Source: Candidatus Enterousia sp.
GTDB lineage: Bacteria; Pseudomonadota; Alphaproteobacteria; Rs-D84
NCBI GenBank assembly: GCA_045645065.1
Contig: JAZRIB010000005.1
Coordinates: 125,917 to 189,916 of the forward strand
DNA length: 64,000 nt
Direction: 5' to 3'
In this document: piece by piece, positions 17,414 to 64,000 of the stretch
Numbering within the stretch: position 1 is the stretch's first letter
Layout: each line of letters starts with the position of its first letter
Program-made: the position numbers and the translations under genes
Notes under the pieces: generated by a model
Seen by the model: the letters and a program-made list of their open reading frames with translations, nothing else
The model's database searches: none
Told to the model about the DNA's origin: nothing

Positions 17414-17426
17414 TTGTTTTTATGTC

Positions 17427-28509: not shown

Positions 28510-30263
28510 ATCCGTACTCCAAAACCAATCTTTTTTGAAAAGCCTGCGGTTTGACGAACTGATAATAATTCATCAATCTTGGCTGGTGTAAATTCTGTGC
28601 GCACATCTTCGGCATTGTTTTCCAGCAATGCACGACGCAAAATAGCCGTGATTTCACGTTGCAATTGGCGCACCCCTTGTTCAGATGTGTATTTTTCAAT
28701 GATGTGCCGTATTGCGCTATCATCAATAACGATATTTTCTGTTTCCCAACCTGTATCATGTGCGGCGCGTTTGACTAAATGTTCGCGTGCGATACGTACT
28801 TTTTCATCGATTGAATATCCTGGAATTTCAATGAGTTCCATACGATCTTTTAATGCGTTTGACAGATTTAATGTATTTGCAGTCGCAATGAACAAGACAT
28901 TTGATAAATCAAAGTCCACTTCCAGATAATGATCGCGGAAAGCCTTGTTTTGTTCCGGGTCCAGAATTTCCAACAGTGCAGATTCTGGGTCGCCCCGCCA
29001 ATCACGTCCCATTTTATCGATTTCGTCCAAAACAATAACAGGGTTGTTTGATTTGCATCGTTTCAATGCGTCCATAATTCGTCCTGTTTGTGCACCGATA
29101 TAGGTCTTGCGATGACCGCGGAAATGCGCTTCGTCCGATACACCACCCAATGATATACGCTGATATTTTCGTCCCAACGCCGCTGCAATAGATTTTCCCA
29201 AAGAAGTCTTGCCAACCCCAGGCGCACCAACAAAACACAAAATAGAACCCTGGTTAGATTTAGTTTTTTTCATAACCGCAATATGTTCCAGAATTCGTTC
29301 TTTGACCCCTTGCATACCAGAATGTTCTGAATCCAGCACATCACGTGCCGTGTTCAAATCAATTTGTGTTTTATCAGATTTATCCCACGGCATTGATAAT
29401 AATTCGTCTAAATATGTTTTTAACAATCCGCCTTCGTTTGACATTGGCGACATAGATTTCATACGTTTCCATTCAGAAAGTGCTTTTTCCTTAGCTTCGC
29501 GGGGCAGGTGGGATTTTTCAATCCGTTTGCGCATATTTTCTGCGTCCATATCTGGATCGTCTTCGCCCATTTCGCGTTGGATTGCGCGCATTTTTTCTTG
29601 TAAAATTGCCTCACGTCGACCTTTTTCCATCTGTTGATGGATGCGCTTGTTAATAGATTCCTCGATTTTTGCGGTTTCAGCGACCAAATTCACCTGTTCC
29701 AACAATATGATTAACTTTTCGCGCCATGACGTTGCGCTTAAAATTTTTAGCGCAGGTTCAACATCCATTTCAATTGCCTGGACAACAAAGTCGATAAAAG
29801 CAGGCAACGGATAGTTTGTTGTCACATTACGTAATTTTTCCATCTTGAATTTTTTCACACCCGCCAAGAACTGCATATTTTCAGCAATTTTATCACGCAG
29901 TGCAATTGTTTGTTCGTGATTTGTATCTTCTTGGATTGCGATTGGTTCTGTGTCACCCACGAAAATTCCATCTTCGATAACTACGTTGCTGATTTTTACA
30001 GCATCTGTTGTGCGTACAATCGCATGCAAAGAGCCATCCGGCATACGCAAAATTTGAACAATATCACCGATTGTCCCAACTGTATAAATATCATTGGGGT
30101 CTGATGGGTAATTCCATGTGCGTTGTGCCACCAATACCAGTTTTTGACCGGTTTTTCCGGCGGATTCAATGCACGCAATAGATGTTTTATTATCAATGAA
30201 CACCGGCACAGTCAGTCCCGGATGAACCACAAAATCCCGAAAGGGTAAAATATATTGTTTCAT
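28506..30263 (-). CDS. lon: Lon-like AAA+ protein (LON N-domain plus AAA+ module) with no S16 protease domain
   Basis: N-terminal ILPFRDFVVHPGLTVPVFI (LON substrate-binding domain). AAA+ motifs: GAPGVGKTSLGKSIA, VIVLDEIDKMG, ATANT. The ORF ends right after the AAA+ alpha-helical lid. No PKDGPSAG-type motif occurs in any frame before tsaB. Confidence 0.85.
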   Translation of the reverse strand: MKQYILPFRDFVVHPGLTVPVFIDNKTSIACIESAGKTGQKLVLVAQRTWNYPSDPNDIYTVGTIGDIVQILRMPDGSLHAIVRTTDAVKISNVVIEDGIFVGDTEPIAIQEDTNHEQTIALRDKIAENMQFLAGVKKFKMEKLRNVTTNYPLPAFIDFVVQAIEMDVEPALKILSATSWREKLIILLEQVNLVAETAKIEESINKRIHQQMEKGRREAILQEKMRAIQREMGEDDPDMDAENMRKRIEKSHLPREAKEKALSEWKRMKSMSPMSNEGGLLKTYLDELLSMPWDKSDKTQIDLNTARDVLDSEHSGMQGVKERILEHIAVMKKTKSNQGSILCFVGAPGVGKTSLGKSIAAALGRKYQRISLGGVSDEAHFRGHRKTYIGAQTGRIMDALKRCKSNNPVIVLDEIDKMGRDWRGDPESALLEILDPEQNKAFRDHYLEVDFDLSNVLFIATANTLNLSNALKDRMELIEIPGYSIDEKVRIAREHLVKRAAHDTGWETENIVIDDSAIRHIIEKYTSEQGVRQLQREITAILRRALLENNAEDVRTEFTPAKIDELLSVRQTAGFSKKIGFGVRI

Positions 30264-38763: not shown

Positions 38764-40842
38764 ATGACATATAATGATATCAGAAAGGCTTTTTTACAAT
38801 ATTTTGAATCGCACGGGCATACAATCGTGCCATCAGCATCACTGATTCCAAACGATCCAACGCTGTTGTTCACAGTTGCTGGTATGGTCCCATGGAAGGG
38901 TATTTTGCAAGGTACCGAACCCGCATTTGCACCACGCGTCGCAGACGTACAGAAGTGTATTCGTGCAGGTGGTAAACATAATGACCTGGAAGATGTTGGT
39001 TTTGATGGTCGTCATCATACATTTTTTGAAATGTTGGGCAACTGGTCGTTTGGCGATTATTTCAAGGCTGGCGCAATTGAAATGTCGTGGGAACTGTTAA
39101 CCAAAGTATTTGGTCTGGATCCAGAACGTATTGTTGTGACGACGCATTACAGTGATGACGAAGCAGCAAAAATCTGGAAACAGGTTTCTGGCAAAGATGC
39201 AATTTTGTTAGGCGACAAAGACAATTGGTGGTCGGCGGGCGATACGGGCCCATGCGGTCCATGTACCGAAATGCACTATGATATGGGGGCGCATTTGCCG
39301 GGTGGATTACCAGGTTCTGCGGACGAAGATGGTGGTCGTTGGGTTGAAATCTGGAATGACGTATTTATGCAATATGATCGCGATGCAAACGGCAATTTGA
39401 CACCACTGCCGAAACAGAACGTTGATACAGGTGCGGGTTTGGAACGTTTTGCATCAATTTTACAGGGTAAAACAGACAACTATGACACAGATTTGTTCGT
39501 GAATCTGAAACGTGCTGTATCTGATGTGACGGGCGTTGCCGAAACAGCGGATAATGTTTCCAGTTTCAAGGTTATCACAGACCACCTGCGTTCGGTCGGA
39601 TTTGCAATCGCAGACGGTGTCATCCCATCAAATACCGATCGCGGTTATGTAATCCGTCGTATTTTGCGTCGCGCAATGCGCCACGGACAAATTCTGGGGC
39701 ATCGTGGGGCGTTGCTGTCAAAATTATATCCAGCGTTAATTACCGAAATGGGTGATGCGTATCCAGAACTGGCGGCGAATCAGGCGCGCGTTGTTGAAAT
39801 TATTCAGAACGAAGAAAACGCATTCGCAGATATGCTGCAAAACGGTATGAAATTATTGGAAAGCGAATTACCAAAACTGAATAACAATGTTTTGCCGGGC
39901 GATGTTGCGTTCAAATTGTTTGACACATACGGTTTTCCATTGGATTTAACCCAGATGATTTTACGTGACAAAAATATCGACGTAGACGTTGCGGGCTTTG
40001 AAAAATCAATGGCCGAACAGAAAGAACGTTCACGTGCCAATACCAAGGGTACACGTATATTCTGGGAATCCCAGACAGAATTATGTGCAACCGATGATGT
40101 GGCAAAATATGCACCAACCCAGATGGAATCGCGTGTGTTGTCAATCTTGCGCAATGGCGAGTTTGTAGAATCAGCGACTGCGGGTGACGAAGTTGAAATC
40201 GCCCTGGACAAAACCACATTCTATGGCACCCAGGGTGGCCAGGTCGGTGACAGCGGCGAATTAAAGCGTGGTGATGACGTTGTTATGACCGTAACCGAAG
40301 CAGGGCGTGTCGACAGTGTTGTCATACACAAAGGCGTATTGAAATCAGACGTATCCGTTGGCGATATCGTTACGCCAGTAATTAATTCGACTGTTCGTCA
40401 ACAGACGGCACGTGCCCATACGGCGACACACTTGCTTCAGGCGGCATTGCGTCACGTCTTGAACGAAGATGTTGAACAACGTGGTTCCAAGGTTTCACCA
40501 GACTCTGTGCGTTTTGACTTTTCATTTGGTCGTGCAATGACGGCCGAAGAAAAAACAGCGGTTGAAAATTTGATTAATGAATGGATTGCCGCTGATATGG
40601 TTGTTACCCACGAAGAAATGTCAATGGATGACGCGGTTAAGCGTGGTGCAATGGCGCTGTTTGGGGAAAAGTATGGCGATATGGTGCGTGTAATTACCGC
40701 CGGCGATGTTTCGTGTGAATTATGTGGTGGAACACATATTCATCACACAGGCGAAATTATCAAAGCCAAAATCAACAAAGAAAAATCAATCAGCAGTGGT
40801 ATCCGCCGTATTACAATGTCGGTTGGTACATTAGCAGAATAA
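38764..40842 (+). CDS. alaS: Alanine--tRNA ligase, short form without the C-Ala domain
   Basis: The class II core (FFEMLGNWSFGDYFK, GPCGPCTEMHYD, WNDVFMQY) and editing-domain motifs (HTATHLLQAAL and CGGTHIHHTGEI) are present. The ORF stops about 30 aa after CGGTH, at 692 aa. Confidence 0.95.
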   Translation: MTYNDIRKAFLQYFESHGHTIVPSASLIPNDPTLLFTVAGMVPWKGILQGTEPAFAPRVADVQKCIRAGGKHNDLEDVGFDGRHHTFFEMLGNWSFGDYFKAGAIEMSWELLTKVFGLDPERIVVTTHYSDDEAAKIWKQVSGKDAILLGDKDNWWSAGDTGPCGPCTEMHYDMGAHLPGGLPGSADEDGGRWVEIWNDVFMQYDRDANGNLTPLPKQNVDTGAGLERFASILQGKTDNYDTDLFVNLKRAVSDVTGVAETADNVSSFKVITDHLRSVGFAIADGVIPSNTDRGYVIRRILRRAMRHGQILGHRGALLSKLYPALITEMGDAYPELAANQARVVEIIQNEENAFADMLQNGMKLLESELPKLNNNVLPGDVAFKLFDTYGFPLDLTQMILRDKNIDVDVAGFEKSMAEQKERSRANTKGTRIFWESQTELCATDDVAKYAPTQMESRVLSILRNGEFVESATAGDEVEIALDKTTFYGTQGGQVGDSGELKRGDDVVMTVTEAGRVDSVVIHKGVLKSDVSVGDIVTPVINSTVRQQTARAHTATHLLQAALRHVLNEDVEQRGSKVSPDSVRFDFSFGRAMTAEEKTAVENLINEWIAADMVVTHEEMSMDDAVKRGAMALFGEKYGDMVRVITAGDVSCELCGGTHIHHTGEIIKAKINKEKSISSGIRRITMSVGTLAE

Positions 40843-46047: not shown

Positions 46048-46076
46048 CAACCCCCCCGCATTATTGCGGGGATTTA
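46048..46076 (-). terminator. Hairpin terminator directly after giant gene 1 (contains a C7/G7 run)
   Basis: Stem CCCCGC (46055-46060) / GCGGGG (46067-46072), loop ATTATT, starting 2 nt after the stop at 46078-46080. Confidence 0.6.
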
Positions 46077-46077: not shown

Positions 46078-49000
46078 TTACCACGGCATAAAACCATCAT
46101 TGCACGTACGTTCACATTTCTTAGTGTTTTTATTCCATTTCATTGAACCTGTTTCATCTTCGTACAATTCCATTGGACAGATTGGAACGCATTCGTTATT
46201 TGTTTTATCCAAATTATACAATTCGCCTTGGTATAAACACGTTGCAATCTTACAGCCGCTGCTATAACTGCTTACCGCTTCATCGCCTAATACACTTTTT
46301 GCATTACGGCATCGTCCGCACTGTTTATCTGGCTCATTTGAATCATATGGATTGTTTGTATAACCTGCATCACACGATGTCGCGATACATTCGGTCCATT
46401 TTTTCAAATCTGTATCCCATGTACGTTTACCAATACCATGTTCAATATTACATACAGAAACATTTGGCACACAAGAATTTGATTCTACATGATATCCATC
46501 GGTGCATTCCGATATCTTGCATATTCCGAATGCGCCATTTGTTACATCCCATGTTTGGGTTGCTGCAACAGCATTTGGTGCAACGCATGATTTAACATTG
46601 CTTTCACATTTATCGCCATCTGGATGATATGTTGGTTTGCATGTTGCAACCAGACAATTTCCATTTGCTTTATATTCCAGTGCATTGTCGCGTTCGCATT
46701 TCTGACACCGTCCGTTAATCAATTCATAATCGTATTTACATGATGTTTCTACACATGTTTCAACACCATTAATCGTTCTGATTTCGCACGGATTTAGTGT
46801 TTCAGAAATCCCCTTGTACGTACACATGTCATCATATTGTACAGAATCCATATCACGTATAGCCGTACCACCAAGAATCGGGTAATCCTTACATATCGCA
46901 TAACACTGTTCAATTTTGGTTGAACCTGCTAGTGACAATGTATGCGTACCACCAGACAGCGCGTCACATGTTTGTGGTTTTGCGTCTGCGACACCGTCTT
47001 CGTTCATATCAACACCTGATTCTGTGCCACAAACACTGTTTTCTGGACACAATGTACATTGTGATTTTTCGCCATCCAGATAGAATGTTGCTTTACATGT
47101 TTTGATTTTACATGTGTCTGTCATATTTGCGCCCTGGTAATCACGTCCAAACATACTTGTTGCATTTGTTAATATGTCGCAATCACCAAAGCACTGACCG
47201 TTATCAACAGAACCTTCGTCTGAATTCGGATAACGCCCGTCAAACAGGTCTTTACACAATTGTGGCTTTGCGTTTGCTACACCATTTTCGCCAACGCGTG
47301 TTTGTTCGCCACAAATACTGCCAGATGGACAAATCTTACATGAATTTGTATTCAAGTAATATTTTGTATCACAACGGTTAACCTGACATTCCGAACATCC
47401 CGCAACATATTCCTGGGCAGATATATCATAACCACATGTCTTCAATCCACTGCCGTTTGTAACATTGCATGGCATATTTTCCATAAAGCATGCAGATGCA
47501 TCTGCGCTGAATTCGGTCTGTGTTTTACCCTGTCTTCCATCGAACGATGCGCATGTACCACGTCCAGTGATATAACCTTCGTTTTCAGGATTCGCCACAG
47601 GCCCAAAGAACCCATATCCGACTTTGACACAATCTGTTGCATCAGATTCTGCTTGGTTCCAGTAATACCCTGCGTCGCATTTATGGAACACGCGCGCCGC
47701 GCAAACCGTATAATCCTGTGTTTCTGGCGTGTATCTGCAATAACGAACCCCGCTGCCGTGTTCTGCGACGAATGGATTGTTTGCCTTGTAACACATTGTA
47801 GATACCGCAGCTGTTTCGATATCTGTATCACCACCGTCTGGACATGGTGTTTTATCCAGATTTCCTTCTTCACTATATGCACCATATCCCACCGCATCAC
47901 AATCTGTAGCATCATTTGCTGCACGATAGTATCCACCCTGACATGATGTTATGTGCCATTCGCGACAATTCGTTGCATACCGCGCACTGCCGTCTTCGTT
48001 CTTGGCGGTGTAATTACATACCTGGGTACCTTTACCATACACAGCCGTATAATCGACAGTTTTATAGCATTCACCAACTTCGGATGCTGTTTTAACAGTT
48101 CCTGTGATACCATTTTCTGGGCATGCATAACGTTTTTTATCTGTGTCGGTACTATAATAATTTATACCAACCTCTGAACAATCGATGCCAGATGAATACC
48201 AGTATCCAGCCACACATGCATCAACTGATTGTTCACGACACAAATTATCATACGCGCTTGTACCATAATTACATGTCTGTGTTCCACTTGCTTTTCCTGT
48301 TGTTGACACATATTTCAATCCTTGTTTATAGCATACGCCAATATTTGTTGCGTCAACACCACCACTGGATTTACCACCATCTGGGCATGTGTTATGGCCA
48401 CTTGTAACCCCTGTGTTGGTTGGGAATGTTCCACCCGGACACCAGTGGTCTAATTCGCACACAGAACACACACCGTCTTTGTTTCCGTTATAGTAATATC
48501 CTGGGTCACATATTGTATCGCCTTCGGCCCACATGACGTTGGCATTTGTATCAGATGTTGCAACCGCCAATGCTTTTGCATCTGTTTGTAATGCACCTGT
48601 TGCATCAATGATAACAACATCGTCAACACCATATCCTGCAAAATTCCAGCCTGGCTTGCTTGGTAATGTGCCGTTGTTTATTTGCGTAATCGGTGTTTGT
48701 GCTGATTTATCTGCAAACCAGCCAACCGTATATTTCAAATAGACAGGGTTTTGTGTTGCGTTCACTGTTGCGTCTGCTGCAACCAGTTTAATTTCAAACA
48801 CACCCGGATTCCATGTTGCATACAACGTTATATCTGAACCTGTATCAGATATATTTGCGGACGTTGCCACACCTGCGGAATAACATTTACCTGTTCCATC
48901 TGGATTTTCACACCATTTGCTGGCTGTTACATACCCATCACGTGTCAGCGCATCTGTTTTTGGTAACATACATGCACCGCTATCAAACGTACATTCTACA

Positions 49001-52000
49001 TAATCATTTATGTTACCAGTACCTTGGTTTTTATTTAGTGTAACCTTGTACTTGTTCGCAACACATTTTGGATTTGTGCCGTTTTGTGGTGTGTATCCAC
49101 TTACACACGTTACAGTATAAGAACACGCCGCATACTGACCGTTTCCATTACTAAACGCTTTCTGTTCATTTGCTGTAACTGTTTTACTGTGTTCTACACC
49201 TGATGTTGTTAACGAACATGCGCTATAACAGTTAGCGATATTTGCGCGTGGCAAATCAGAACCGATACCATCACCTGTGGCACCTGTTTCGCCTGGACAC
49301 AAATGAGCCTTTTTACTATTTGCATCTTCAACATCGCCAGACGAAACTGGACCTGGACTGTAATATCCGTCTTTCACAGGCGTACATGCAATTGCACCTT
49401 TATCGGTATAGTAATATCCTGCATCACAACTAAGGGCAATGGCATTACAGTCTTCACGATATATTGCGTTACTATCATCGCCACTGGTATATGCACAATC
49501 CCATTTTGCAGTACCATATTTAAATTCTATATCCGCTGCAATTGCAGTCTTGCGACATTCATATATACTGGTCGCTTGTGCTACGATTGTTGCACCACCT
49601 GCGGGGCATGTTGCAATACATCCTGTGGAACCTTCGTTGATTTTTCCTGTTCCTGGACAATATTTGCCTAATTCACAACGTGTCTTGACACCATTGTTAA
49701 AGTAATACCCAGATTCACAATCAACCATGTTTTGATCCCAGATAGCATACAATGTCATTTCGCCACCATCAGACAGCAAATTCTTGATACTGCCATTAGG
49801 CAAAATCGTTTGTCCCGACCCGTCTGCTTTTGTGTTCCATGCGTTAAAGGTTTTATATTCCATTTGCAACGCATCTGGGGCCTGACATTCTTTGTCATAC
49901 GTACATACAACATCTGGGACATTCAATCCTGTGGCATCTGTTGGATTGAAATGCACTGTAAATGTTGTTGCTTTCCAATTTGCGATAACTGTTGTATCGC
50001 CTGTTGAACCGCTTGCAATCGCATTATTTACAACTTTATCACCCGTCCACTTTTCGAACACATAGCCCGTCTTGGTTGGTGTTAACAATGCAACCGGCGT
50101 ATCTTCAATTGTATACGTTGTTGGATTGCTTGGATTATTATTTCCATCATTCATTGTATATGTAATATCATATACGTTCTTTTCCCAATGCGCATACAAT
50201 ACATCATCTGTTGTAAATGTATTATTTGCAGGAATGTTCATATTGGCGTCTATAATGCGGTTACCACCAGACTGTGCGTCATAATAGCCCAAGAAAGAGT
50301 ATCCCGGACGTGTTGGTTTGTTTAATTTGTTTAACACAGTTGTTGCTGCTGCATTTGTATACCAACCAACTGTATACTTCTGGTAAACAACACCATTGCC
50401 ACCGGAACCTGCATTATCGTCTAATGTTATTTCATATGTTCCTGGCGTACATGTTGCCACATCAGATGCAGACATTGGTGCGCTATACAATGTGCGTTTA
50501 TAACTATATTCAACTTTATCGGTTGTGTTTGCCACATATCCAGGATCACAAACAAATGTGAACGAACAGAACGAAGTCGGTGTACATATAGTTTGTGGAT
50601 ACCATCTATACCCCATTGTTGGTAGCGTTCCTTCGGTACATGTTGCATGTTCAGGACAATGATTAACACTTGTACCTGGTATTACATTACCATCCATATC
50701 TAATACATAATCATTTGCGAAATTACACGTTGGCGAACATCTGCTGTAACACGCGTTTGGACCATTTGATATCGTTGGCATAGATGCCAAACTATACATT
50801 CCTGCTGGCTCTAAATCACTACAAGACGATAAACAATCCGGTTTTTCTGTTGTAATATAATGACGCGCATCGCACATATTGGTGGTACTGTTCGCATCAA
50901 TTTTACACTCGGCGTCTTTTACCGTACATGTATTTGAATTATAGTATTCAATACCAGCTATCTCCTCAGATGTATCGTATTTACATTTAGAGAAATTCGT
51001 CGGGCAACCACTTGGTTCAACGCACAGTTCAGTACATTGTTTGTAGCAGTCTGTTATTTCGTCACTGCCGGCTTCAGAATAGGGGAACGAACCGCCTGTT
51101 TCTGTACCACATGAATATTCTACACCGTTTTTGCAATAACTGTTTGCAGGACATACATTGCTACACTCTGAAACACTGGCCGCAGTATCTTTACCTGTCA
51201 ATGCGCCACCTGGACATGGTGTACGATACACAGAACACCCTGGCTGAGTAGGTTCTTTGTCTTCGCCATCACAATTGGCTTGTGACGGGCTATAGAAACC
51301 ATCGCCAACCGGCACACAATCGTCTGTTGATTTGGTTGTATCCAACCAATATCCTGCATTACATGAAACGACGGTTGCTTGCGTGCAATTTACATCATAT
51401 TTCTTTGAATCATTTGAATAGTAACATTGGCGTCTTTGGAACCCATATGTCGTATAATGAGATAACCCTTTCATTATACACTGTTCGGCACTTTCAGATG
51501 TTTCATAGTTTGTTGTTCCGCGCGTGTTTGTATCTGTATTCAACGGACAATCTGATGCTGTCAAAGAATTTGCAGGACTGTATTTTCCATATCCAACCGC
51601 ACTACATAATACATCCGTTGTATTTTTACGATAATAACCACCCGCACAGGTAATAATGCTTTGATTGCTACAATCCTTGGTATATTCACCTGTATTTACA
51701 TTGTATTTGCATGTCTGACTGCCTGTTGTATAACTGTCTGGGGCATACGCCAAATTCGTTGCATAACAATCTTGGGACGACGTTGATTTTTCTAGAGAAC
51801 TTACCACAACGTTCATAGTTTTACCAGATGCGTCCGTTGCAGCAACATATTTACCATTTAATGATTCACAGGTACTACGTCCACTCTCTGTATTTGTGTC
51901 CTGAACAGTCGTTATACCAACACAATAACTGCCTGATGGACATGGTGTACAAGATGCACCTGTTCCTTTATAATATTCTCCTTTGTCACAGGTTATCTGT

Positions 52001-55000
52001 GGCTTATCAGTCCAGCTTGCTGTAATTGTTTCAGGCCCAGTAAACAATTTGTAATTCGTTGTCAACTTACCCGTTGCATCAATTACTACATCATTCTTGT
52101 TCGACAGATATCCGCCAAAAGTCTTTCCTGATAGTGTTAATGGGCTAACAGACGTTAACACTTGTGAAGTTCCTGCGTCTTTGTACCAACCTGTGTTGTA
52201 TTTCAGATATATTTCATTAACCCCAGATGTAGCACCGTTGTGATTTAACGTTATCTTGTACACAGCTGGCTGACACGACAAACCATTGGCCTCATACCCA
52301 GGATCACAGTTTGCACTATACTTACATTCCTGTATGCGTGTACCGTCGTAATATACTTTATCTGATGTTGGCACCAGTGTTCCATTAACAATATTTTGTT
52401 CCGGACAAGTATTATAACAATCTGACGCCAACGCAGATGTAGCAGTTTCTGTTTTAACTTCGCCAACTGTATTGCTGTTTGACAACGAAGAACATGCTTT
52501 TCTGGCGCCTACGCCATCATTAGCTGCACGATAATAACCAAAACCAACTGGATCACACTTATCACTTGTTCCATCTCTGTAATATCCAGCGATACATGAT
52601 GTTGGCACGATATTACAAGACAAGTTATAAGAAGATGCGGCTGCGTTCCAATTACAGGTCTTATTACCACTACCTGTATTTTGTGTACCATTTGCTGCTT
52701 CGATATCAACCGTTCCTGTGGCCATACACTGTGATATACTATTCGCCCCATTTACAGATGATATTGTTTTACCGGTTGCGGCTGGACATTTTATCATACA
52801 GCCTTTGGTTGTATCGTTTTCTTCACCTTTATTTACTTTATTACCTGGGCAATAGTATCCCGATTGACAATCTGCACCACTGGCATCCTTTCCTGACTCA
52901 CATTGAAATACCCCTAACGCACAACCTGTATCAGTCTTGTTGTAATTTGTATTACATGTCCAATCGTTCGTTCCATCACATGTCGCATGATCAGGGCAGG
53001 TTGTACATGTATTGTTTTTCAACAACAATCCTGTATTACACTTGTTAATTGTCAAAGAACATGTCGGTGCAGTTGCATTACACGCAAAACCATAATACTG
53101 GGTACCGGTCGCTGTTTCTGTGCCATTCGTACAAGACGCCGCGTCACTTGGGCATGTTTGTGGGTTACATGACACTGTACATGACTTAGAACATTTATCT
53201 TTACCATTTGTTCCCCCTGGACATGTGTATCCACTGCCTAATTCAGACGCTGGTTTACACGCGCCATTATCAAGATAGTATCCAGATTGACAACTGGTCG
53301 CTTTACATGTGCTTGTTCCACCTTTGGTAAGTGTACCTGTAACCGCTGTTGCGCCAGACACATCGGATTTTATACAGTCACGATAACATGTGTTGGTATT
53401 GCCACTGCAAATATTATACGTTCCGTTTGTGTATCCTGTAATGCTTGTGCATGATGTTGTACAACTTGTACATGTGCCGTTTAATGGATATGTACCAGAA
53501 CCACAGTTACACCCACCATCTGTTGTCGAATTACATGGGGTCCACTTGGCCCAGAACGTCAATGCAGTTGTACAATTTCCTGTAGCGACGCTTGTAATTT
53601 TATTGCCGCTTAACTCTGCATTATCAAACCAACCATCAAATTTATATCCTGCACGTATAACATTTGTCGGCAAATTAAACGTAGGGGTTTCTACATTACA
53701 CGCAGACATATAATCCCCAACAATCTCACCATTATTTTTATTGTATATGATTGTTTTCTCGCTTTCAGAAACCCACGCTGCTGTCAGTGTTTTGTTTTCT
53801 GCATATTTCCATGTAAATGCTGTACCAGCTGCTTTCTTATCCCCAACACCACTAACGGTCCAGCCATCGAACTTATATCCCTCACGTGAACATGTGTTTG
53901 CCGCTGGGGTGAAACTGCTGTCATATTTTGCAGTTGTTGCAGACGGCGCAGTACCAGAACCATCACCACATGAATACGTTACGTTATATTTACGTGCCGA
54001 ACAGCCTGCCAATGTCCCAGACGCTGAACCCGCTGTACCATATGCTGTGAACGATGGTGTTGTATCTGTATTGCCTGATTTACTGTAACCTGTATTACAT
54101 GTTACTGTGTACTGGCAACGATTGTTTGCTGTATCTGTAGATGCAGAACCTATCGTACTGTTTGCAGCGGCTGTGTACGAACATTTTGCCCACACAGCAT
54201 ACAATTGCACTGAACCACCACATGTCGCAGTCAGGTTCGTAACACTTTGACCGTTCTTATATGTTTCGGACGTTGCGCCACTGGTCGTTGACCAGCCCAA
54301 GAATACATAACCATCACGTGTAAATCCATTAGAGGTTAATGTTTTACCACTGTCATATGTGTGCGTGCTGGACGCTGTTGTCCCAGAACCACCGTTAGCA
54401 TTGTATGTTACAGTATATGTACATGGGGTGTATTTACATGTATCATCGGCACTCTTATAGTCACGACCAGATTTTGTATAACCCGTCTTGTCTGCGCAAC
54501 TTGTATAACAGTATCTTTCGCCATTCGCATCATTGTCATGGCTTGGATATGATGAGTCACACTTTGTACACTTACCACTGCCCAACCATGTATTGTTTGT
54601 ACATGATGTTGCTGTACAGCTACTTGGGGCGGTCGCACCATAATAGAACTTACCTGTTACCGCGCCACTGTTTGATACATCGGTTGTCGAACAAGAACGA
54701 TAACACGTGTTGACTGTATCCCTGTTGCCGTCTGATGCCGTATAATCTGCGCCTGCTTTCGTTGTACATGAATCACATGTCGCAGTGTATCCACCACCAT
54801 TGTTGGTTGCGCTTCTGGTGGCTTTATAGTAACCGCTGTTACATGACCATGTGATATTACATACGTTATTAGAAACTTTTGCGCTACAACCTATGGCACT
54901 GGTGTCATTTGTACACGTACACTGCGACCACTGGGCATACAATGTTTTATTCGCTGTAAATGTTGTATTCGCAGGCAGGGCACCGGTCGCCGTAATACGT

Positions 55001-57468: not shown

Positions 57469-57586
57469 TCTTCTCGCTTTCCTTTCTCTTTTACCATAAT
57501 CATAGAAAAAACAAGGCACTTTGCACAAGCAAAAAACGCTCTTTTCAACAAAAAAAATTAATTTGACAGAACGTTTTGCTGTTGAC

Positions 57587-57616
57587 TTTTTTGAAAATTG
57601 AATTTTTTCAAAAAAA
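57587..57616. repeat. AT-rich palindrome in the giant-gene intergenic region
   Basis: TTTTTTGAAAA (57587-57597) and TTTTCAAAAAAA (57605-57616) are reverse complements flanking TTGAA. Confidence 0.5.
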
Positions 57617-57625
57617 CACAACGCA

Positions 57626-57648
57626 GGGTGGGGGACAATACCCCCCCC
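57626..57648. repeat. G-rich/C8 hairpin with an 8-nt homopolymer tract upstream of giant gene 1
   Basis: GGGTGGGGG (57626-57634), ACAATA, then CCCCCCCC (57641-57648). This is a G8 run on the coding (minus) strand, 173-180 nt upstream of ATG 57468. Confidence 0.8.
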
Positions 57649-57703
57649 AAGGCAAATGTCATCCATGTCGCTATTATCTATTCATTAAATGAATAATCCA
57701 AAT

Positions 57704-57730
57704 AAAAACCCCGATTACTCGGGGTTTTTA
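57704..57730 (-). terminator. Rho-independent terminator after giant gene 2
   Basis: Stem CCCCGA (57709-57714) / TCGGGG (57719-57724), flanked by A5 and T5 runs, about 20 nt after the stop at 57752-57754. Confidence 0.75.
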
Positions 57731-57751
57731 TTTCCTTCCTGAAACTGTGCA

Positions 57752-60700
57752 TTATTGCCAATCGTTAACAACCGAATACGTTGTCGATCCGTTTTTAACT
57801 TTCAGCGCACCACTCAACGACGTGCTTAACGCGCCATAGAATGTTGTATCACCAACCTTGACACGCAGTGACGGTGTTGAACGTTCCGCGCTGCGCAAGT
57901 ATATTGTACTACCACCTGCGTGCAACTTGCGCCCACAGTCCGCCGCCTCGTTTGCACACGCACCCGAACCACATGTCACCAGTCCTGTTCCACATGCCGT
58001 ACGTGTCAAACTATCTGCTGCTGACCAGTATCCAGTTGTAACCGGTTTACACACATTACCCTTTAGCGTGGTTGCTGTCCCATTTGTATTATTACCAACG
58101 CCCGCCGCATAATAATATCCACTGGCACAACTATTCGCCTGCTGATATACCCAGCAACTGCTGAAATCGCCTGCTGTGCTTGAATACTGACAATAAACCT
58201 GACCATCATAATTACCTGTATCGTCCGCAACTGGTTCGTTCATACGCACCTGACAACCATCAATTGTGTCATGAATACCATCTGCGACCCAATACTGTTT
58301 GCCCAGCACCTTACTTGAATAAGTTTCATATGTCGGACAACTCCTACACGATGTCTGCTTTGTTGCATCCTGATACGTCGCACCGGTACATGCTGTCTGG
58401 GTTGTTTTACCCGTACCACTTACATGATACCCTGCAGACGCATCAATACACGAAGTCTTACCTGTTTCTGGCTGGTATGTACCCGCATCGCACAGTGTAC
58501 GTCCCTGTTCATTTGCATTGTACGAATATGTTACTTTTGTACTTGGGCAATATGAACCGGCTGGACATATCGTACATGATGTTTTACTACCTTGGACATA
58601 ATATCCCGCTTCACATTCAAAGCTTTGCAATAAACATGCATCCCCCGACGTTTGTGTTGCGCCACCAACTGTACCACCAACTGTATAGTTTGTTAAGCAT
58701 GTACATGTTGACGATGCGTTACCTGCGTTGGATGTACTGTTTGATGGACACGCAGAACAGCTTATTGTTGCGCCACTTTGGGTTGGTTTATACGTATTCT
58801 GGGCACAGGTTCCAGCATATGTACACGAATTAGTCCCCTTGGTTACAGAACAACTTGCCGCGTTTGTACCCTTTACGCATGGTTTACAATCCCATGAACA
58901 TGTGCTGGCGGTTGTTGCGCCACTGGTCCATTGACCGTTTGTTGGCAACCCAGAACACGGACTGCACGAAATACTGGACGCAGACGTATTCTTATTATGG
59001 TTTGCATTATAGTAACCATTGTTACATACGTGTTTGTACTGACATACATTGTTTACTACGCCTACAAACGTTGCACTGGCTACATTCGATCCCTTTGATG
59101 CCGATGCACATGGTGACCACTTTGCATAAACAGTAAGTGTTCCTCTGTCATGAATTGTGCCTGATGTACCAGTAATTTTAATGGTTGGTACACCTGTTGC
59201 AGTAATGACTTCATCCCATCTTTCGCCATCAAAGTCCCCGCCGTTGTTTAAACAATCGTAGAGCCCTTTGCCATTTTCCGCACACCAATCAAACTCATAC
59301 CCTTGGAATACATAGCCTGAACGTGTTGGTATTGCAACCTTGGTTATATAGTTCTTGGCACTATTCATCAAAGCGTACTCTCCGCCGCTTCCTGTGATTG
59401 GTGTAAAGTCCCCAGATGCATGAAAGTCAACATAAACCGTACCAGAACCGCCCGAACCACCATTATCATTCAATGTAACTTTCAGATAACGTCTGGCCCA
59501 GACTGGGGTCAACGTTAATGAATCGCCCGTTGCCAATCCCTTCAGATTATCGCCCGGTCTAACAACACTTTCACCATCGCATGGTTTTGTGCCGCCTGTA
59601 CATTTCCAGTTGACAAAGAAATAATCTGATTTTTCAAATGTATTTTCCGGCACGATGCAATCGCCACTGTACGTACAACTTTTCAACGATGGTTCCGAAC
59701 CGCCTGTTGCGCCATTGTTATCATAGTTCATTGCAAAAGTTTGTTCCGAACAACCCGCCAATGTCCCAGACGCAGAACCCGCTGTACCATACGCTGTGAA
59801 CGATGTTGTTCTGTCTGCACCACCATTCTGGCTGAAACGTGTGCTACATGTTACCGTGTACTGGCAACGATTGTTTGCTGTATCCGTAGACGCAGAACCT
59901 ATCGTACTGTTTGCACCGGCTGACCATGCGCACTGGGCCCATTGTGCCGTCAATGTGATGGTTGTTCCTGTGCTGGCGTTCTTGATATTTCCGCCAACGC
60001 CCGGCATTCCACCGTCACAGATAGTATTACCACCTGTACATTTCCAACCCGCGAACACATATCCTGAACGGGTATATGTATTTGCCGGAACGATACAGTC
60101 TTTATCGTACGTACAGCTGGTCAATGCTGTTGGTGCAGAACCACCTGTTGCACCATTGCCATTATACGTTACGCTAAACGTGTTGGCCTTACAACTTGGG
60201 GTTGCAGTGGTTGCATTGCTTACCGTATACCCATCTTCACACGTTGCGCTATATTTCGCAGTACCATCACTGTTAATGGTTAAAGAACATGTACCGTGAG
60301 TTGGTTTCACACAATTCGTCGCCCATGCTGCATACAAATTCGTATTTGCACTAAACGTTGTGTTGCTTGGCAACGCCCCTGTATTTGTTATACGACGTGT
60401 GCCACTGCCACCACTTGACGTCAAATCAGCTTGTTTCGTGGTATAGAACCCACGGAACGTAAAGCCATCACGCGACGGTATTGATGCCTTATCCAATGAT
60501 GATGTTGCACCACTGTTGCTGTACCAGCCCGTTGCATACTTTTCGTATATCGTCGAATGCGTTGCGCTGTCGTTATAATTACGCAATGTAATCGTGTATG
60601 TATTCGGCTTATACTCACATGTATCATCGGCACTCTTATAGTCACGACCAGATTTTGTATAACCCGGCTTGTCTGCGCAACTTGTAAAACAGTATGCATC

Positions 60701-63700
60701 ACTAATATTACCGCCATCTGAACCTGGGTAAAGATATGAACACGATGCACATGTCTTATCACGACCTGAACCTGTTACATATGCTCCACTTACTGCTTTA
60801 TATGTATTTGATTCATTTACTGTACCGGTGTAACTACCCGCGGTTGCATTATAATATACCATCATACCACCACTTGAACAGTACTCACTTTTCGTTGTTG
60901 CCGTGATACCAACATAGCACTGCGTTGCTTTGGTTGCTTTTGCATCAGACGCAACTGGCCATGTGCTATCCGGTGGGCATGTCATGCGTCCTTGGATTCC
61001 GCCATTATATGTCCATGATGTTTCCGGACAATAATATCCCGACTCACAATCTTTACATGTTGTACCATCCAAATACTGCCCCGCAGAACATGTATATGTG
61101 TTTGCAGTCCATTTACCAATGAATGTTGCTGTACCACTGGCCACACCTAAATCAGCTTTGGTACAATTAACAGTTGCGCCACTTGCAAATGTCTTTGCAT
61201 TAATTGCCCAACCACCAAATGTGTATCCTGTGGCACTCATTGCGGACGGCGCAGAGAATGTCGTACCATATGTACAACTGGTTGTAGCAGATGGTACTGT
61301 GCCATGACCCCCATTTGTCCATGCCAGTGTAATAACATTTGGCTGACATGAATCATCAACTACATGATAACCTTCGTTACATGTCCATTTTGCATGCAAG
61401 GCTTTATTACCTGTTGAACCCTTTGCAATCTGGGTAATTTTGTTTGTGAACGCAGATTCTGTATACCAACCACCAAACGTACTGTTTGCACGTGTTGGTG
61501 TGCCCAACACGATTGTTGGTGTTGTTACCTGATACGTTTTTGGCGCATCAGCATAGTTCGTACCACCATTCAACGTATATGAAATCGTATATGTCAACAC
61601 TGTTCCTGAACACATACTATTACCGTTCAAATCAGATGGTGTACATATTGCCTGTTCGTAACCACCACTTGGTGTTGCCGTTGCTGTACCGCAAATACCC
61701 TTGTCTACGGTTGGTGTACAACTTTTAACGCCAACGCCCAAAGAACATGTACAATCGTCACCCCAAATCGCATACAGCGTAACACGCGCATTATTTACAC
61801 TTATTACATTTGTGACGACCTCTGCGTTTGTGTACTGTGGTGTACCGATATTTGTTCTGGACCATCCTAAGAATCGTTTCAATCCATTAGAATAACCATT
61901 TGTTATCAACGCTTTGGGTTGATCATATGTATGGGCGCTTTCCAGCATTTTACCGTCACCACCATTTGGATCAAACACGATAACATATGTAACTGGTGTC
62001 CATTGTGCTGTTACCGCCGTAGAATTACCACCATACGTCCCCAGGTTTGTATTATTACAGGTCACAGAATCACCGGCTTTTTTGATTGAACCGTCTGCCA
62101 ATTTCCAACCGTCAAAGCCATAACCTGTACGGCTTGGTGCGCTTGGCAATACCAATGTACTGTTATATGTACATGATCCATTATCTATGATACCACCTTC
62201 GTTTTCGTTATAGTTAACAACGATTTCACGTGGGTTACATTTTGTACCATCTGTACTTTTTACATAACCATTGTTACATGTAAAGCTCAATGAACATGTC
62301 AACTGGCTTGCATTACATGTACCGTTATAATTTTCACGACCCGAAGATGTCGATGTTCCATGTGTACATGTCGCATGTAATGGACATGTTTGCTGTGTAC
62401 ATGCCTTTGTACAGTCTTTATAACAGTCTGCCTTTGCATCTGAGCCTGATTCGCTTTTTGGATGTGTTGATGGACATTGATTTTGTTTCGACGATGTTGA
62501 ATTTTCTGGACAGTAATATCCACTTTCACACGTACCACTACACGCCGCTGATGTCATACCTTTCTGGGCGCCATATGTACCACCTGGACACGCAATACAT
62601 GCTGTTGCTGCTGATGAACCAGTCAACGCATTATACGTACCAATTCCACATTCTGTGCGACCAGCAATCATGCCATAGTATACTTTTGAACCACCATTCG
62701 GACAGAACGATCCCTTTGGACAAGTAGTCTGTGCGCCACCTTCTGTTCCGACGTATTTACCTGTTTCCAAGGTCAGGTAACAATCAGCCGATGATGTTGA
62801 ACCTTCTGTACTGCTGTTATACCCATTCCCCAAGCCAGAGCATGTATTTGCCCCCCATGATTCATTGTATGTACCACTGCTGCACACTGGCACAGTACCA
62901 CCCGGACAGTATGAATTCGCAGGACATTTAACCGCTTTTCTATACAGCATACTATTCGTTGTTGTATTACAATACGTGCTGCTGTAACGTTCTGTCAAAT
63001 AATATCCAGCCTTTACATTAGACGTATATATACTACCTTGGTCTGTATCGTATTTACCAGTAGTTGAATCATATGCCATAGATTCAATGGTAAATGTCGC
63101 ACACGGTGTTGATACACGCATACCACTTCTACATTGTGTAATCAAACTTGTACCTGTTGCAGACCAACTGTGGAAGTACGCACTTTCTATCGATGAATTC
63201 GATGCTGTTGCTGTCGGGCAACGTTCTGTCAACCAATCCATATCAGACAATGATTCTTGATACGCACTGTTTGTTGGATCCGGACAGCTTTTTTTGCTGC
63301 TTGTATTTGGATAATACAATGTTGTTGCCGGACAGTAATTATTTACCTCACAAAGTGTCTGTGACGTTGCGTCTTTGGATGCGATATAGAATCCACCAGA
63401 CGTTGTGAAATAACAATCTTCTGCTGCATCCGACCCCGCCTTACTGTTTTTATACAGTCCTGGGCATGTTTTTGCACTGCTTGAACCTTCTGGGCAATAT
63501 GTACCTTCTGAACACTGTGCCACAGACGAACCATTACATACATAACCCGCCGGACATGCTTTCCATTCAACATAGAATTTCTTGTTGCCTGTTGAACCCT
63601 TTGCAATCTGGGTTGTAACTGTTCCAGATGCACTTTCTGCATGCCATGCAACGAACTGATAACCCGCCTTGTATGGTGTCGGCAAATTGAACGTAGTCGA

Positions 63701-64000
63701 CGTTACATCATATGACGATGGCGACAATGACATTGTGCTGGACCCGTCATAGTATGTAATAGAGTAGGTGTTCAAATTCCATTTCGCAGTCAATGTTTTA
63801 TCTGCTGCATATTTCCATGTGAACGCTGTGCTTGCTGCTTTGACATCGCTTGTGCCACTAACCGTCCAGCCCGCAAACGTATATCCCGTACGTGAACATG
63901 TGTTTGCTGCTGGGGTGAAACTGCTGTTATATGTTGCAGTTGTCGCAGACGGCGCAGTACCACTGCCATCACCACATGAATACGTTACATTATATTTACG
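57752..64000 (-). CDS. Giant secreted cysteine-rich mosaic protein 2, paralog of giant 1; 5' end outside window (at least 2082 aa)
   Basis: The reading frame stays open from 63793 to 64000 (own translation: RKYNVTYSCGDGSGTAPSATTATYNSSFTPAANTCSRTGYTFAGWTVSG...LTAKWNL). The ORF-track M at 63793 is an internal TTG. It uses the same two module types as giant 1 and has a Cys-free 59-aa C-terminal tail. Confidence 0.9.
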   Translation of the reverse strand, partial: RKYNVTYSCGDGSGTAPSATTATYNSSFTPAANTCSRTGYTFAGWTVSGTSDVKAASTAFTWKYAADKTLTAKWNLNTYSITYYDGSSTMSLSPSSYDVTSTTFNLPTPYKAGYQFVAWHAESASGTVTTQIAKGSTGNKKFYVEWKACPAGYVCNGSSVAQCSEGTYCPEGSSSAKTCPGLYKNSKAGSDAAEDCYFTTSGGFYIASKDATSQTLCEVNNYCPATTLYYPNTSSKKSCPDPTNSAYQESLSDMDWLTERCPTATASNSSIESAYFHSWSATGTSLITQCRSGMRVSTPCATFTIESMAYDSTTGKYDTDQGSIYTSNVKAGYYLTERYSSTYCNTTTNSMLYRKAVKCPANSYCPGGTVPVCSSGTYNESWGANTCSGLGNGYNSSTEGSTSSADCYLTLETGKYVGTEGGAQTTCPKGSFCPNGGSKVYYGMIAGRTECGIGTYNALTGSSAATACIACPGGTYGAQKGMTSAACSGTCESGYYCPENSTSSKQNQCPSTHPKSESGSDAKADCYKDCTKACTQQTCPLHATCTHGTSTSSGRENYNGTCNASQLTCSLSFTCNNGYVKSTDGTKCNPREIVVNYNENEGGIIDNGSCTYNSTLVLPSAPSRTGYGFDGWKLADGSIKKAGDSVTCNNTNLGTYGGNSTAVTAQWTPVTYVIVFDPNGGDGKMLESAHTYDQPKALITNGYSNGLKRFLGWSRTNIGTPQYTNAEVVTNVISVNNARVTLYAIWGDDCTCSLGVGVKSCTPTVDKGICGTATATPSGGYEQAICTPSDLNGNSMCSGTVLTYTISYTLNGGTNYADAPKTYQVTTPTIVLGTPTRANSTFGGWYTESAFTNKITQIAKGSTGNKALHAKWTCNEGYHVVDDSCQPNVITLAWTNGGHGTVPSATTSCTYGTTFSAPSAMSATGYTFGGWAINAKTFASGATVNCTKADLGVASGTATFIGKWTANTYTCSAGQYLDGTTCKDCESGYYCPETSWTYNGGIQGRMTCPPDSTWPVASDAKATKATQCYVGITATTKSEYCSSGGMMVYYNATAGSYTGTVNESNTYKAVSGAYVTGSGRDKTCASCSYLYPGSDGGNISDAYCFTSCADKPGYTKSGRDYKSADDTCEYKPNTYTITLRNYNDSATHSTIYEKYATGWYSNSGATSSLDKASIPSRDGFTFRGFYTTKQADLTSSGGSGTRRITNTGALPSNTTFSANTNLYAAWATNCVKPTHGTCSLTINSDGTAKYSATCEDGYTVSNATTATPSCKANTFSVTYNGNGATGGSAPTALTSCTYDKDCIVPANTYTRSGYVFAGWKCTGGNTICDGGMPGVGGNIKNASTGTTITLTAQWAQCAWSAGANSTIGSASTDTANNRCQYTVTCSTRFSQNGGADRTTSFTAYGTAGSASGTLAGCSEQTFAMNYDNNGATGGSEPSLKSCTYSGDCIVPENTFEKSDYFFVNWKCTGGTKPCDGESVVRPGDNLKGLATGDSLTLTPVWARRYLKVTLNDNGGSGGSGTVYVDFHASGDFTPITGSGGEYALMNSAKNYITKVAIPTRSGYVFQGYEFDWCAENGKGLYDCLNNGGDFDGERWDEVITATGVPTIKITGTSGTIHDRGTLTVYAKWSPCASASKGSNVASATFVGVVNNVCQYKHVCNNGYYNANHNKNTSASSISCSPCSGLPTNGQWTSGATTASTCSWDCKPCVKGTNAASCSVTKGTNSCTYAGTCAQNTYKPTQSGATISCSACPSNSTSNAGNASSTCTCLTNYTVGGTVGGATQTSGDACLLQSFECEAGYYVQGSKTSCTICPAGSYCPSTKVTYSYNANEQGRTLCDAGTYQPETGKTSCIDASAGYHVSGTGKTTQTACTGATYQDATKQTSCRSCPTYETYSSKVLGKQYWVADGIHDTIDGCQVRMNEPVADDTGNYDGQVYCQYSSTAGDFSSCWVYQQANSCASGYYYAAGVGNNTNGTATTLKGNVCKPVTTGYWSAADSLTRTACGTGLVTCGSGACANEAADCGRKLHAGGSTIYLRSAERSTPSLRVKVGDTTFYGALSTSLSGALKVKNGSTTYSVVNDWQ
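59846..59915. repeat. Inter-paralog DNA cassette, copy in giant 2 (partner 54097-54166)
   Basis: Hand alignment gives 67/70 identical nt. Confidence 0.85.
60617..60695. repeat. Inter-paralog DNA cassette, copy in giant 2 (partner 54436-54514)
   Basis: Hand alignment gives 77/79 identical nt. Confidence 0.85.
63891..64000. repeat. Inter-paralog DNA cassette, copy in giant 2 (partner 53885-53994); runs off the window
   Basis: Hand alignment gives 102/110 identical nt. Confidence 0.8.

Follow-up and report, generated by a model that had tools for sequence, protein, structure and literature searches.

Giant repetitive adhesin-like surface proteins with Flg_new stalks are already known from host- and partner-dependent microbes. 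In published work, Flg_new is a stalk domain of fibrillar adhesins as well as a hallmark of the adhesin-like proteins that gut-adapted microbes have gained, and enrichment in Thr combined with depletion in Leu has been reported for the fibrillar adhesin-like class. Herein, we describe two head-to-tail genes for giant Flg_new proteins in a 64,000-nucleotide (nt) stretch of Candidatus Enterousia sp. DNA (GenBank assembly GCA_045645065.1, contig JAZRIB010000005.1, positions 125,917 to 189,916 of the forward strand), which we call the window and which is always meant at its full length. Giant 1 (46078..57468, minus strand) encodes 3796 amino acids (aa) plus a stop and consists of a signal peptide, 13 Flg_new units, seven cysteine modules of type A, eight of type B, and a conserved end named CT2. 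Giant 2 (57752..64000, minus strand) encodes at least 2082 aa plus a stop, with 10 Flg_new units, five type-A modules, one type-B module, and a different conserved tail, CT1; its 5' end lies beyond the window, and only its 3' part can be read here. We lean moderately toward reading both as Sec-exported, disulfide-stabilized, rod-like modular proteins of the fibrillar-adhesin type, made by a partner-dependent bacterium of the order Rs-D84 and probably serving to attach it to other cells.

The Flg_new adhesin-like proteins of gut Firmicutes, Bacteroidota, and methanogens resemble the giants in length, secretion, the large number of units, a Thr-rich and Leu-poor composition, a gut habitat, and a presumed C-terminal anchoring region. 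The giants differ from them in coming from a probably diderm alphaproteobacterium and in alternating Flg_new with cysteine ladders (about 6% Cys); they are also devoid of an LPXTG, S-layer-homology, GW, or PGF-CTERM anchor and of a known adhesive tip, and end in CT1 or CT2 instead. With Listeria InlB and the other internalins they have the B-repeat (Flg_new) fold family in common, and NCBI names one relative "InlB B-repeat-containing protein." They are not internalins, however, as neither leucine-rich repeat nor GW domains are matched in the giants by Pfam and the inter-repeat domain is missing too. Proteins of several thousand residues have likewise been described from other uncultured bacteria with reduced genomes or a predatory life, such as the Omnitrophota, which presumably depend on other cells and whose assemblies often fragment these proteins (bioRxiv 10.1101/2023.11.21.568195); the likeness is one of description only, and both the phylum and the domain content differ.

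What appears to be undescribed is the alternation of Flg_new with Ephrin_rec_like-type and type-B modules at about 6% Cys, along with the CT1 and CT2 families, the cassette of promoter and signal peptide in front of the genes, and the restriction to Rs-D84/Enterousia. Neither the papers on the lineage nor any other paper retrieved in full-text searches on the lineage names, bacterial Ephrin_rec_like, or Flg_new describes these proteins, and none of the ten relatives whose protein names were looked up carries a name.

The lineage itself gives the giants their biological setting. Candidatus Enterousia (order Rs-D84) has genomes of <1 Mbp, does not respire, has an incomplete glycolysis, and makes no amino acids, nucleotides, or lipids of its own. 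The lineage is widespread in the guts of ruminants, horses, chickens, mice, and humans, and an obligately symbiotic or parasitic life, sustained by metabolites from other cells, has been proposed for it. In a genome of that size, the two giant genes make up about 2%. The window is chromosomal, carrying recN, dnaE, secA, a Lon-like gene, the RNase J gene, alaS, tsaD, ruvB, rplM-rpsI, the trigger factor gene, and the RNase P RNA. The DnaE and AlaS encoded there fall into clusters of ≥90% identity whose other proteins bear the name "MAG: Alphaproteobacteria bacterium" (MAG, metagenome-assembled genome); together with the small size of related Candidatus Enterousia genomes, this bears out the reduced, alphaproteobacterial background that had been suspected from the sequence. 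A Tol cluster (16655-18720, minus strand) comprises a ybgC-like thioesterase, TolQ (MotA_ExbB), TolR (ExbD), and a 252-aa TolA-like open reading frame (ORF) without a Pfam match. Since ybgC, tolQ, and tolR point to an outer membrane that has been kept, the envelope is probably diderm.

The reality of such long genes in an assembled metagenome has to be established before their content is discussed. The minus-strand frame of giant 1 is free of stop codons from 57666 to 46078 and that of giant 2 from the window edge at 64000 to its stop codon at 57752-57754; at the base composition of the window, this would happen by chance with a probability of about 1e-109 over 3796 codons and 1e-60 over 2082 codons. 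The two genes measure 11,391 and 6,249 nt, together 17,640 nt or 27.6% of the window. The first-pass annotation had reported two head-to-tail minus-strand genes covering some 28% of it, each with its own hairpin terminator, and both statements are borne out: the intrinsic terminator hairpin after giant 1 (46053..46072, minus strand) was read in the DNA and found by a terminator scan, and that after giant 2 (57701..57726, minus strand; CCCCG-AGTAAT-CGGGG and a T-run) was read directly and is not listed by the scan. Both hairpins are rich in G+C and have T-runs. The DNA repeats common to both giants do not exceed 215 nt and are only 75-87% identical, and no tandem DNA repeats were found within either gene; a collapsed or chimeric assembly of the locus is therefore unlikely. 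More generally, we regard it as hardly conceivable that the giant ORFs are an artifact of assembly or annotation, whether through chimeric or collapsed repeats or through the reading of noncoding sequence. The suspicion is fed by the origin of the window in a metagenome-assembled genome and by related contigs, which often break within giant genes, as well as by public gene calls, which split them. It meets not only the improbably long open frames and the absence of near-identical internal repeats but also collinear orthologues in independent assemblies from other host species and the recurrence of the same ends in hundreds of homologues. The splitting can be drastic: at the related locus L043 (574-12346), an ORF of 2799 aa that includes the conserved signal peptide appears in the public record only as a 781-aa product. 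Every match of a word-indexed protein search was shorter than 800 aa. Because public gene calls fragment the giants, surveys based on catalogues will underestimate the family.

The Flg_new repeats are recognized far above the curated cut-offs. PF09479 (cut-off 27 bits) matches giant 1 with an E-value of 5.2e-65 (215.9 bits) and giant 2 with 2e-45 (153.2 bits), and TIGR02543 (cut-off 20.95 bits) does so with 6e-31 (106.5 bits) and 1.7e-26 (92.3 bits), respectively. A hidden Markov model (HMM) iterated on the window's own repeats maps the 13 units of giant 1 and the 10 of giant 2, so that the earlier count of Listeria-Bacteroides repeats (at least 12 and 10) stands. In giant 1, eight units with short Cys-containing linkers form the main block (53542..56337), three units form a second one (49738..50361), and single units lie at 52012-52179 and 48811-49023, all on the minus strand. 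The Flg_new region of giant 2 (59255..62200, minus strand) consists of two four-unit blocks, 61109-62200 and 59255-60520, with a type-A module between them (60851-61090, minus strand), and two further units lie at 63563-63964 (minus strand). Thr accounts for 13-14.5% and Leu for 3.4% of the residues in the giants. A Flg_new stalk in combination with this Thr-rich, Leu-poor composition fits the published fibrillar adhesin-like class.

None of the familiar ways of exporting or anchoring such a protein was recognized. Pfam and NCBIfam gave no match in the giants to autotransporter, trimeric autotransporter, or two-partner secretion domains, and RTX/HemolysinCabind was not matched either, giant 1 carrying an N-terminal Sec signal peptide instead. 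An LPXTG motif with a hydrophobic helix and a charged tail is absent from both C-termini as read. The initial remark that there is no autotransporter barrel, RTX, or LPXTG is thus borne out, and its broader form, that no familiar export or anchor domain is present, holds for known families but misses the conserved lineage-specific modules in which both giants end.

Between and beyond the Flg_new units the giants are filled with cysteine modules, giant 1 having 237 Cys residues (6.2%) and giant 2 having 114 (5.5%). Type A, of about 78 aa, follows the pattern C.AGQY..G..C..C..GYYC...C.AGTYQP.TGKTSC...GYYV..TG.T.Q..C and occurs seven times in giant 1 and five times in giant 2. Type B (about 55-75 aa; G.G...C.Y......Y...C.......C.AGYY.....C..VG.GYYSP) has eight copies in giant 1 but a single one in giant 2. 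About half of each giant lies outside the Flg_new, type-A, and type-B models and is made up of further Cys-containing linkers, for example, with the motif C.YTVTC..GY (five copies in giant 1, two in giant 2). The interleaving of Flg_new with dense cysteine modules, as first described, could be mapped as an alternation in both proteins, and the motifs CTPCPSGSYC, CKICPSGSIC, CTICPAGSYC, and C.AGTYQP.TGKTSC, quoted at that time, are present in the translations. The first type-A module of giant 1 lies at 57139..57372 (minus strand; CSAGQYLNGTTCRDCEAGYYC...CAAGTYQPDTGKTSC...). Toward the C-terminus of the protein, types A and B alternate over 46879..49719 (minus strand), a region that encloses the Flg_new unit at 48811-49023. 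The 837 aa C-terminal of residue 2960 match no Pfam family.

The relationship of type A becomes visible through its homologs. Within the window, PF07699 (Ephrin_rec_like) stays below its 23.1-bit cut-off, with 21.1, 18.4, 18.4, and 18.2 bits in four of the nine Cys-rich segments (21.1 bits in the first type-A module of giant 1), and it is not among the matches of the whole giant proteins at E-values up to 0.01. Residues ~36-125 of giant 1, on the other hand, align with the proteins P0252-P0258 at 36-47% identity (database-wide E-values of 1e-13 to 1e-17), and the aligned stretches in these proteins are their PF07699 matches of 56-80 bits. In CT1-bearing relatives, PF07699 scores 25.6-74 bits and TNFR_ELAPOR1_6th up to 45.9 bits (cut-off 33.2), so that PF07699, TNFR_ELAPOR1_6th, and Flg_new all exceed their curated cut-offs within the same polypeptide. 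Conversely, an HMM built from the window's type-A copies alone recognizes the tandem PF07699 repeats of unrelated proteins. That type A is a member of the Ephrin_rec_like/TNFR cysteine-ladder superfamily is well supported by these sequence comparisons. The ephrin-receptor-like modules of the first-pass annotation are hence sub-threshold in the window itself but homologous to bona fide PF07699 stretches. With the described Ephrin_rec_like/GCC2_GCC3 and TNFR-type proteins (Eph receptor, ELAPOR1, and proteins of protists and marine prokaryotes), type A shares C.AGTYQP..G..SC..C..G.Y, whereas the copies in the window are divergent and set within a bacterial giant together with Flg_new.

The other eukaryotic likenesses that had been suggested fared less well. 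PF03302 (VSP) finds no match in the giants, even at a permissive E-value on segments, and neither furin-like, EGF, nor TNFR_c6 models match them; in a single relative, TNFR_c6 reaches 20 bits and so stays below its cut-off of 29.4. Both the furin-like resemblance and the EGF module put forward for checking therefore drop out. Giardia VSPs and ciliate surface antigens do resemble the giants in their Cys-rich, Thr/Ser-rich extracellular repeats and in forming a gene family with conserved ends and variable bodies. C..C motifs, however, number only 14 in the 3796 aa of giant 1 (eight in giant 2), there are few copies per genome, and the C-termini (...GFMPW in giant 1 and ...VVNDWQ in giant 2) have neither a hydrophobic or transmembrane helix nor a CRGKA tail, which leaves an analogy only.

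A eukaryotic source of the cysteine modules, by acquisition or mimicry, had been part of the same suggestion and was considered separately. We inspected the contigs of three of the nearest PF07699 relatives outside the lineage, and two of these contigs are clearly prokaryotic: one is bacterial (LysR, histidine kinase, and PemK) and one archaeal-looking (replication factor C small subunit and RNase PH). The third, of 2 Mb and with fragmented genes, is not assignable. Several further weak matches from marine or archaeal sources carry PF07699 as well. With two of the three contigs being prokaryotic, a eukaryotic source is not indicated, and we rejected it as unsupported. Ephrin_rec_like repeats are consequently not a reliable sign of eukaryotic origin.

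The end of giant 2 is the most widely shared part of the family. The protein terminates in ...C.NEAADCGRKLHAGGSTIYLRSAERSTPSLRVKVGDTTFYGALSTSLSGALKVKNGSTTYSVVNDWQ, and this terminus is CT1, a conserved domain of about 60-80 aa, predicted to be all-beta (57755..58003, minus strand; C.NEAADCGRKLHAG..IYLRS..R..PSLRVKVGD.TFYGALS..LSGALKVKNGSTTYSVVNDWQ, followed by the stop). A profile made from alignment A3, in which the last 83 aa of giant 2 form the first row, retrieves 591 protein clusters (50% identity) with E-values ≤1e-3, of which 398 have E-values ≤1e-10. CT1 stands almost always at the extreme C-terminus, in proteins of ~80 to 6644 aa, and the same tail closes many otherwise different Cys-rich proteins. 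The 138 newly returned representatives include 41 of more than 2000 aa; over all 138, Cys content has a median of 5.7%, and an N-terminal signal peptide is seen in about half. An extra domain follows CT1 in P0177, P0186, P0200, P0206, P0209, P0212, P0213, P0220, and P0221; these domains are of at least three types, some with Cys. Their presence in some members shows CT1 to be a domain and not merely a terminal signal. In a 583-aa CT1-tailed relative (P0041), residues ~309-380 give a sub-threshold match to the F5/8 type C (discoidin, galactose-binding-like) domain, a hint that some family members may bind carbohydrate.

CT1 has no match in Pfam, in NCBIfam, or, by sequence, in the PDB, where no search with the CT1 profile, one type-A module, or the CT2 region went below an E-value of ~0.7. 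AlphaFold2 models CT1 with six short beta strands, at a predicted local distance difference test score that exceeds 90 in a 210-aa model and averages 81.9 when the tail is modeled alone; the strands, of 5-8 residues, are too short to span a membrane, and the domain itself has only about 60 aa, both of which speak against a barrel translocator. Foldseek found no match in the PDB for either the 210-aa or the CT1-only model (best E-values of 0.87 and 1.4, TM-score ≤0.24), and its top matches (the EphA4 ectodomain, p75NTR, and a mastigoneme) are not significant and suggestive at most.

In its position, CT1 recalls the C-terminal domain (CTD) of the type IX secretion system (T9SS), a beta-rich domain found on many otherwise unrelated Bacteroidota cargo proteins with Sec signal peptides. 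It is likewise beta-rich, measures ~60-80 aa, and occupies the extreme C-terminus of unrelated proteins of differing size, many with a Sec signal peptide. CT1 lacks a sequence or fold match to the CTD, however, and occasionally has domains behind it. The T9SS CTD HMMs (e.g., TIGR04183 and Por_Secre_tail) find nothing in the giants, no T9SS-like genes were seen near family members, and the T9SS is not known from Alphaproteobacteria.

Giant 1 closes with the second end module, CT2 (46081..46440, minus strand; ...GC.IA.C.YQGELY.L..NECVPIC...DETG..W...KC.R.C..G(Y/F)..W, followed by the stop). CT2 is present in 18 unnamed clusters at 40-62% identity, strictly terminal in all of them, and its alignment (A4) has 31 invariant columns. 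It also turns up at 14 metagenome loci, with human gut and activated sludge among the sources. Like CT1, it has no Pfam or PDB sequence match.

The ends thus place both giants in a large lineage-specific family, as judged from sequence, and they are no isolated oddity. A scan for CT1 (alignment A1, one genome per GTDB species) yielded 42 loci, 40 of which bear alphaproteobacterial titles, Candidatus Enterousia and one Rickettsiales included, and two of which read only "proteobacterium." The MAGs come from ruminant, horse, and human guts, and some 1-3 CT1 genes were detected per genome. In the six nearest loci, CT1 is 72-78% identical, and the bodies are 30-57% identical in non-collinear blocks. 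The two giants of the window are themselves mosaic paralogues, with blocks of 42-55% aa identity in differing order. The family can accordingly be described, at the level of sequence, as a conserved 5' cassette and conserved 3' end modules enclosing fast-evolving, shuffled middles.

A CT1 gene followed by a giant-1-like gene recurs at loci L004 and L006, with collinear orthologues of 36-43% identity over >1000 aa, and at L001 the two genes stand in reverse order. Pairing of CT1 with CT2 was considered as a rule and discarded: they are adjacent in the window and at L001, L004, and L006 only, and not at the other CT1 loci or at the 14 CT2 metagenome loci. Positions vary between genomes as well. 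In ~20 relatives a CT1 giant separates rnpB from secA; the window has no giant at that site, its own giants occupying the tsaD side. The neighbors are housekeeping genes (secA, rnpB, ribosomal protein genes, ftsH, and tsaD), and the nearness of secA is probably coincidental. At L008 (1378-8088, from a roe-deer MAG), a CT1 gene is followed by DUF2155, an AmiA-like gene, and tsaD, with short fragmented ORFs in place of the giant-1 orthologue; the copy may have decayed, or the assembly may be at fault. Signatures of phase variation or recombination were also considered and rejected, there being no tandem repeats inside the genes and no long near-identical repeats.

The 5' cassette is best seen in giant 1. 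For this gene, the start at 57468 (MSRILRIF...) is preferred over the upstream ATG at 57666 because the MSR(F/I)LR signal peptide, a purine-rich ribosome-binding site (RBS), and the leader recur at nine related loci from other assemblies, whose homologous giant genes open with the same MSR(F/I)LR signal peptide. The Sec-type signal peptide (57388..57468, minus strand) reads MSRILRIFTIIFGLIFAGNLFIGDVSA and is followed by ANSY, the cleavage site having been placed by eye; the classical signal peptide noted at the outset is thereby corroborated by its conservation in the nine homologs. Upstream lies a promoter-like leader (57469..57545, minus strand) with a T-run, CTTGTG (57524-57529), an 18-nt spacer, TATGAT (57499-57504), and the purine-rich RBS before the ATG. 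When the 300 nt upstream of the ten giant genes (that of the window and those of the nine related loci) are aligned, blocks conserved at ≥80% give the consensus T-run, CTTG(T/C).., 17-18-nt spacer, (C)TATGAT, AAAAGAGAAAAAGAAAGTGGGAAGA-ATG. It resembles the alphaproteobacterial promoter consensus CTTGAC-N17-CTATAT. A simple sigma-70 scan did not score the giant 1 leader. On the strength of this conservation, the leader would act as the promoter of giant 1.

The cassette of leader and signal peptide stands before giants of either end type and across species (window, L001, L004, L005, L006, L016, L020, L024, L030, and L043), and its sharing suggests common regulation and an easy exchange of gene bodies. 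In the gap between the giant 2 terminator and the giant 1 promoter, there are, in addition, a palindromic A/T element (TTTTGAAAAAATTCAATTTTCAAAAAA; 57582-57613, minus strand), partly conserved in L001 and L043, and a G8...C5 hairpin at ~57636-57660. Either could be an operator, an UP element, or a second terminator.

Put together, these parts suggest how a fibrillar adhesin-type protein might be made and displayed. Giant 1 would be transcribed from its own conserved promoter to its own terminator, giant 2 likewise ending at a terminator of its own. The signal peptide of giant 1 would take the chain through SecYEG; the window also carries the gene for SecA. Once the chain has reached the periplasm, its ~6% of Cys would form disulfides and turn it into braced rods, a long stalk of Flg_new beta domains, type-A ladders of the Ephrin_rec_like/TNFR type, and the lineage-specific type B. 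CT1 in giant 2 and CT2 in giant 1 may then fasten the protein to the cell envelope or target it to that site, and the fast-evolving, shuffled middle and N-terminal parts may contact a partner cell, a host surface, or mucus. Of the hallmarks of fibrillar adhesin-like proteins, length, signal peptide, Flg_new stalk, and Thr richness are observed; the anchor would be CT1 or CT2, and the adhesive region is presumed. Surface exposure, disulfide formation, anchoring through CT1/CT2, and adhesive function are what we infer from these features. Of the host-interaction or surface-coat role first envisaged, interaction with a host or partner remains plausible, but the part about eukaryotic modules is not supported. 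In a bolder version, CT1 and CT2 are the recognition or anchoring domains of an undescribed route that brings giant, disulfide-rich fibers to the outer surface of Rs-D84 bacteria; a common cassette of promoter and signal peptide, shuffled stalks of Flg_new and cysteine ladders, and either of two end modules would together make up an attachment organ for parasitizing a partner cell in animal guts. This version is tentative, and we consider it unlikely as a whole.

Several results weigh against the adhesin interpretation. The weakest link is the passage through the outer membrane: for a disulfide-rich protein of 3796 aa, no route was identified in Pfam/NCBIfam, be it a barrel, a two-partner secretion, an RTX, or a T9SS-type element, and no dedicated transporter or secretion partner was found conserved beside family members. 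CT1 offers no structural match that would indicate a mechanism, and the extra 100-220 aa that follow it in about nine of the 138 representatives make a sorting signal confined to the terminus less likely. Finally, no adhesive tip domain is recognizable in the giants.

Other functions have to be weighed against the same evidence. The mosaic, non-collinear middles between conserved 5' cassettes and 3' ends would also suit a variable protective coat or antigenic-variation family that shuffles modules among its paralogues and functions like Giardia VSPs or ciliate surface antigens. One or a few Cys-rich, protease-resistant giants would then cover the cell, and the paralogues exchanging modules would have promoter, signal peptide, and anchoring ends in common. 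Several members per genome at varied positions (rnpB-secA in ~20 relatives, the tsaD side here) and a high content of Cys, Thr, and Ser, apt for a protease-rich gut, point in the same direction. We nevertheless find a coat doubtful: a repertoire like that of the VSPs would need more than the ~1-3 CT1 genes detected per genome, and paralogue repeats of ≤215 nt and 75-87% identity give no evidence of recent gene conversion. Neither invertible promoters nor in-frame homopolymer tracts nor diversity-generating elements were seen, and the Pfam VSP model finds no match. It is improbable, too, that the giants never reach the surface and act as periplasmic or envelope-integral structural proteins, for instance, as a scaffold or a component of cell-cell junctions. 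Modules of the Flg_new and Ephrin_rec_like/TNFR types have been described in extracellular proteins, and a length reaching 6644 aa together with a body that diverges fast is characteristic of proteins exposed to the outside and not of housekeeping envelope proteins, even if a Sec signal peptide without a recognizable outer-membrane translocation domain, Tol genes implying an outer membrane that must be crossed, and disulfide-rich folding, which normally takes place in the periplasm, would all agree with such a location.

Released effectors or polymorphic toxins aimed at the partner or at competitors, with the repeats as a delivery stalk and the C-terminal module as the activity, are a far-fetched explanation in our view. 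The giants do have that outline, being secreted, very large, and closed by a C-terminal module of a distinct kind, and some relatives add further C-terminal domains behind CT1; CT1 and CT2, however, are highly conserved and not polymorphic, no domain of a toxin, an immunity protein, Rhs, PT-HINT, or an enzyme was matched, and no small immunity-like gene is conserved downstream.

The giants offer a firm starting point for understanding a gut lineage that is widespread and as yet unexplained. With ~2% of the genome devoted to them at one locus, the family suggests itself before any other as the source of the molecules through which Rs-D84 depends on other cells. It extends over at least 42 loci in about three dozen related species-level genomes, reaches 6644 aa, and adds three domain families without a Pfam or PDB counterpart. 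Its definition supplies handles, in the form of antibodies and of probes for proteomics and transcriptomics, on the targets of attachment and on the way in which a diderm cell exports giant disulfide-rich proteins.

The remainder of the window holds some further features. The RNase P RNA (15152-15486, plus strand; Rfam RF00010, 166 bits) is overlapped on the opposite strand by a 130-aa ORF (14912-15304) that is probably spurious. Two adjacent minus-strand genes encode secreted proteins: one of 535 aa (2418-4025) is Cys-rich (7.1% Cys) with only a sub-threshold cEGF match and shows no homology to the C-terminus of giant 1; the other, of 811 aa (4038-6473), joins an N-terminal region rich in Ser, Thr, and Arg to a body that contains Cys. 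Many relatives conserve the DNA of this second gene, and its protein is likewise unrelated to the giant 1 C-terminus. The Lon-like protein (28506-30263, minus strand; 585 aa) covers positions 2-567 of the 795 in the profile and thus breaks off ahead of the protease domain, and the ORF next to its gene encodes a TsaB/TsaD-fold protein and not the missing protease domain. AlaS (38764-40842, plus strand; 692 aa) is without ~150 C-terminal profile positions. Both truncated proteins fit the loss of domains that the first-pass annotation had remarked upon in the genome surrounding the giants.

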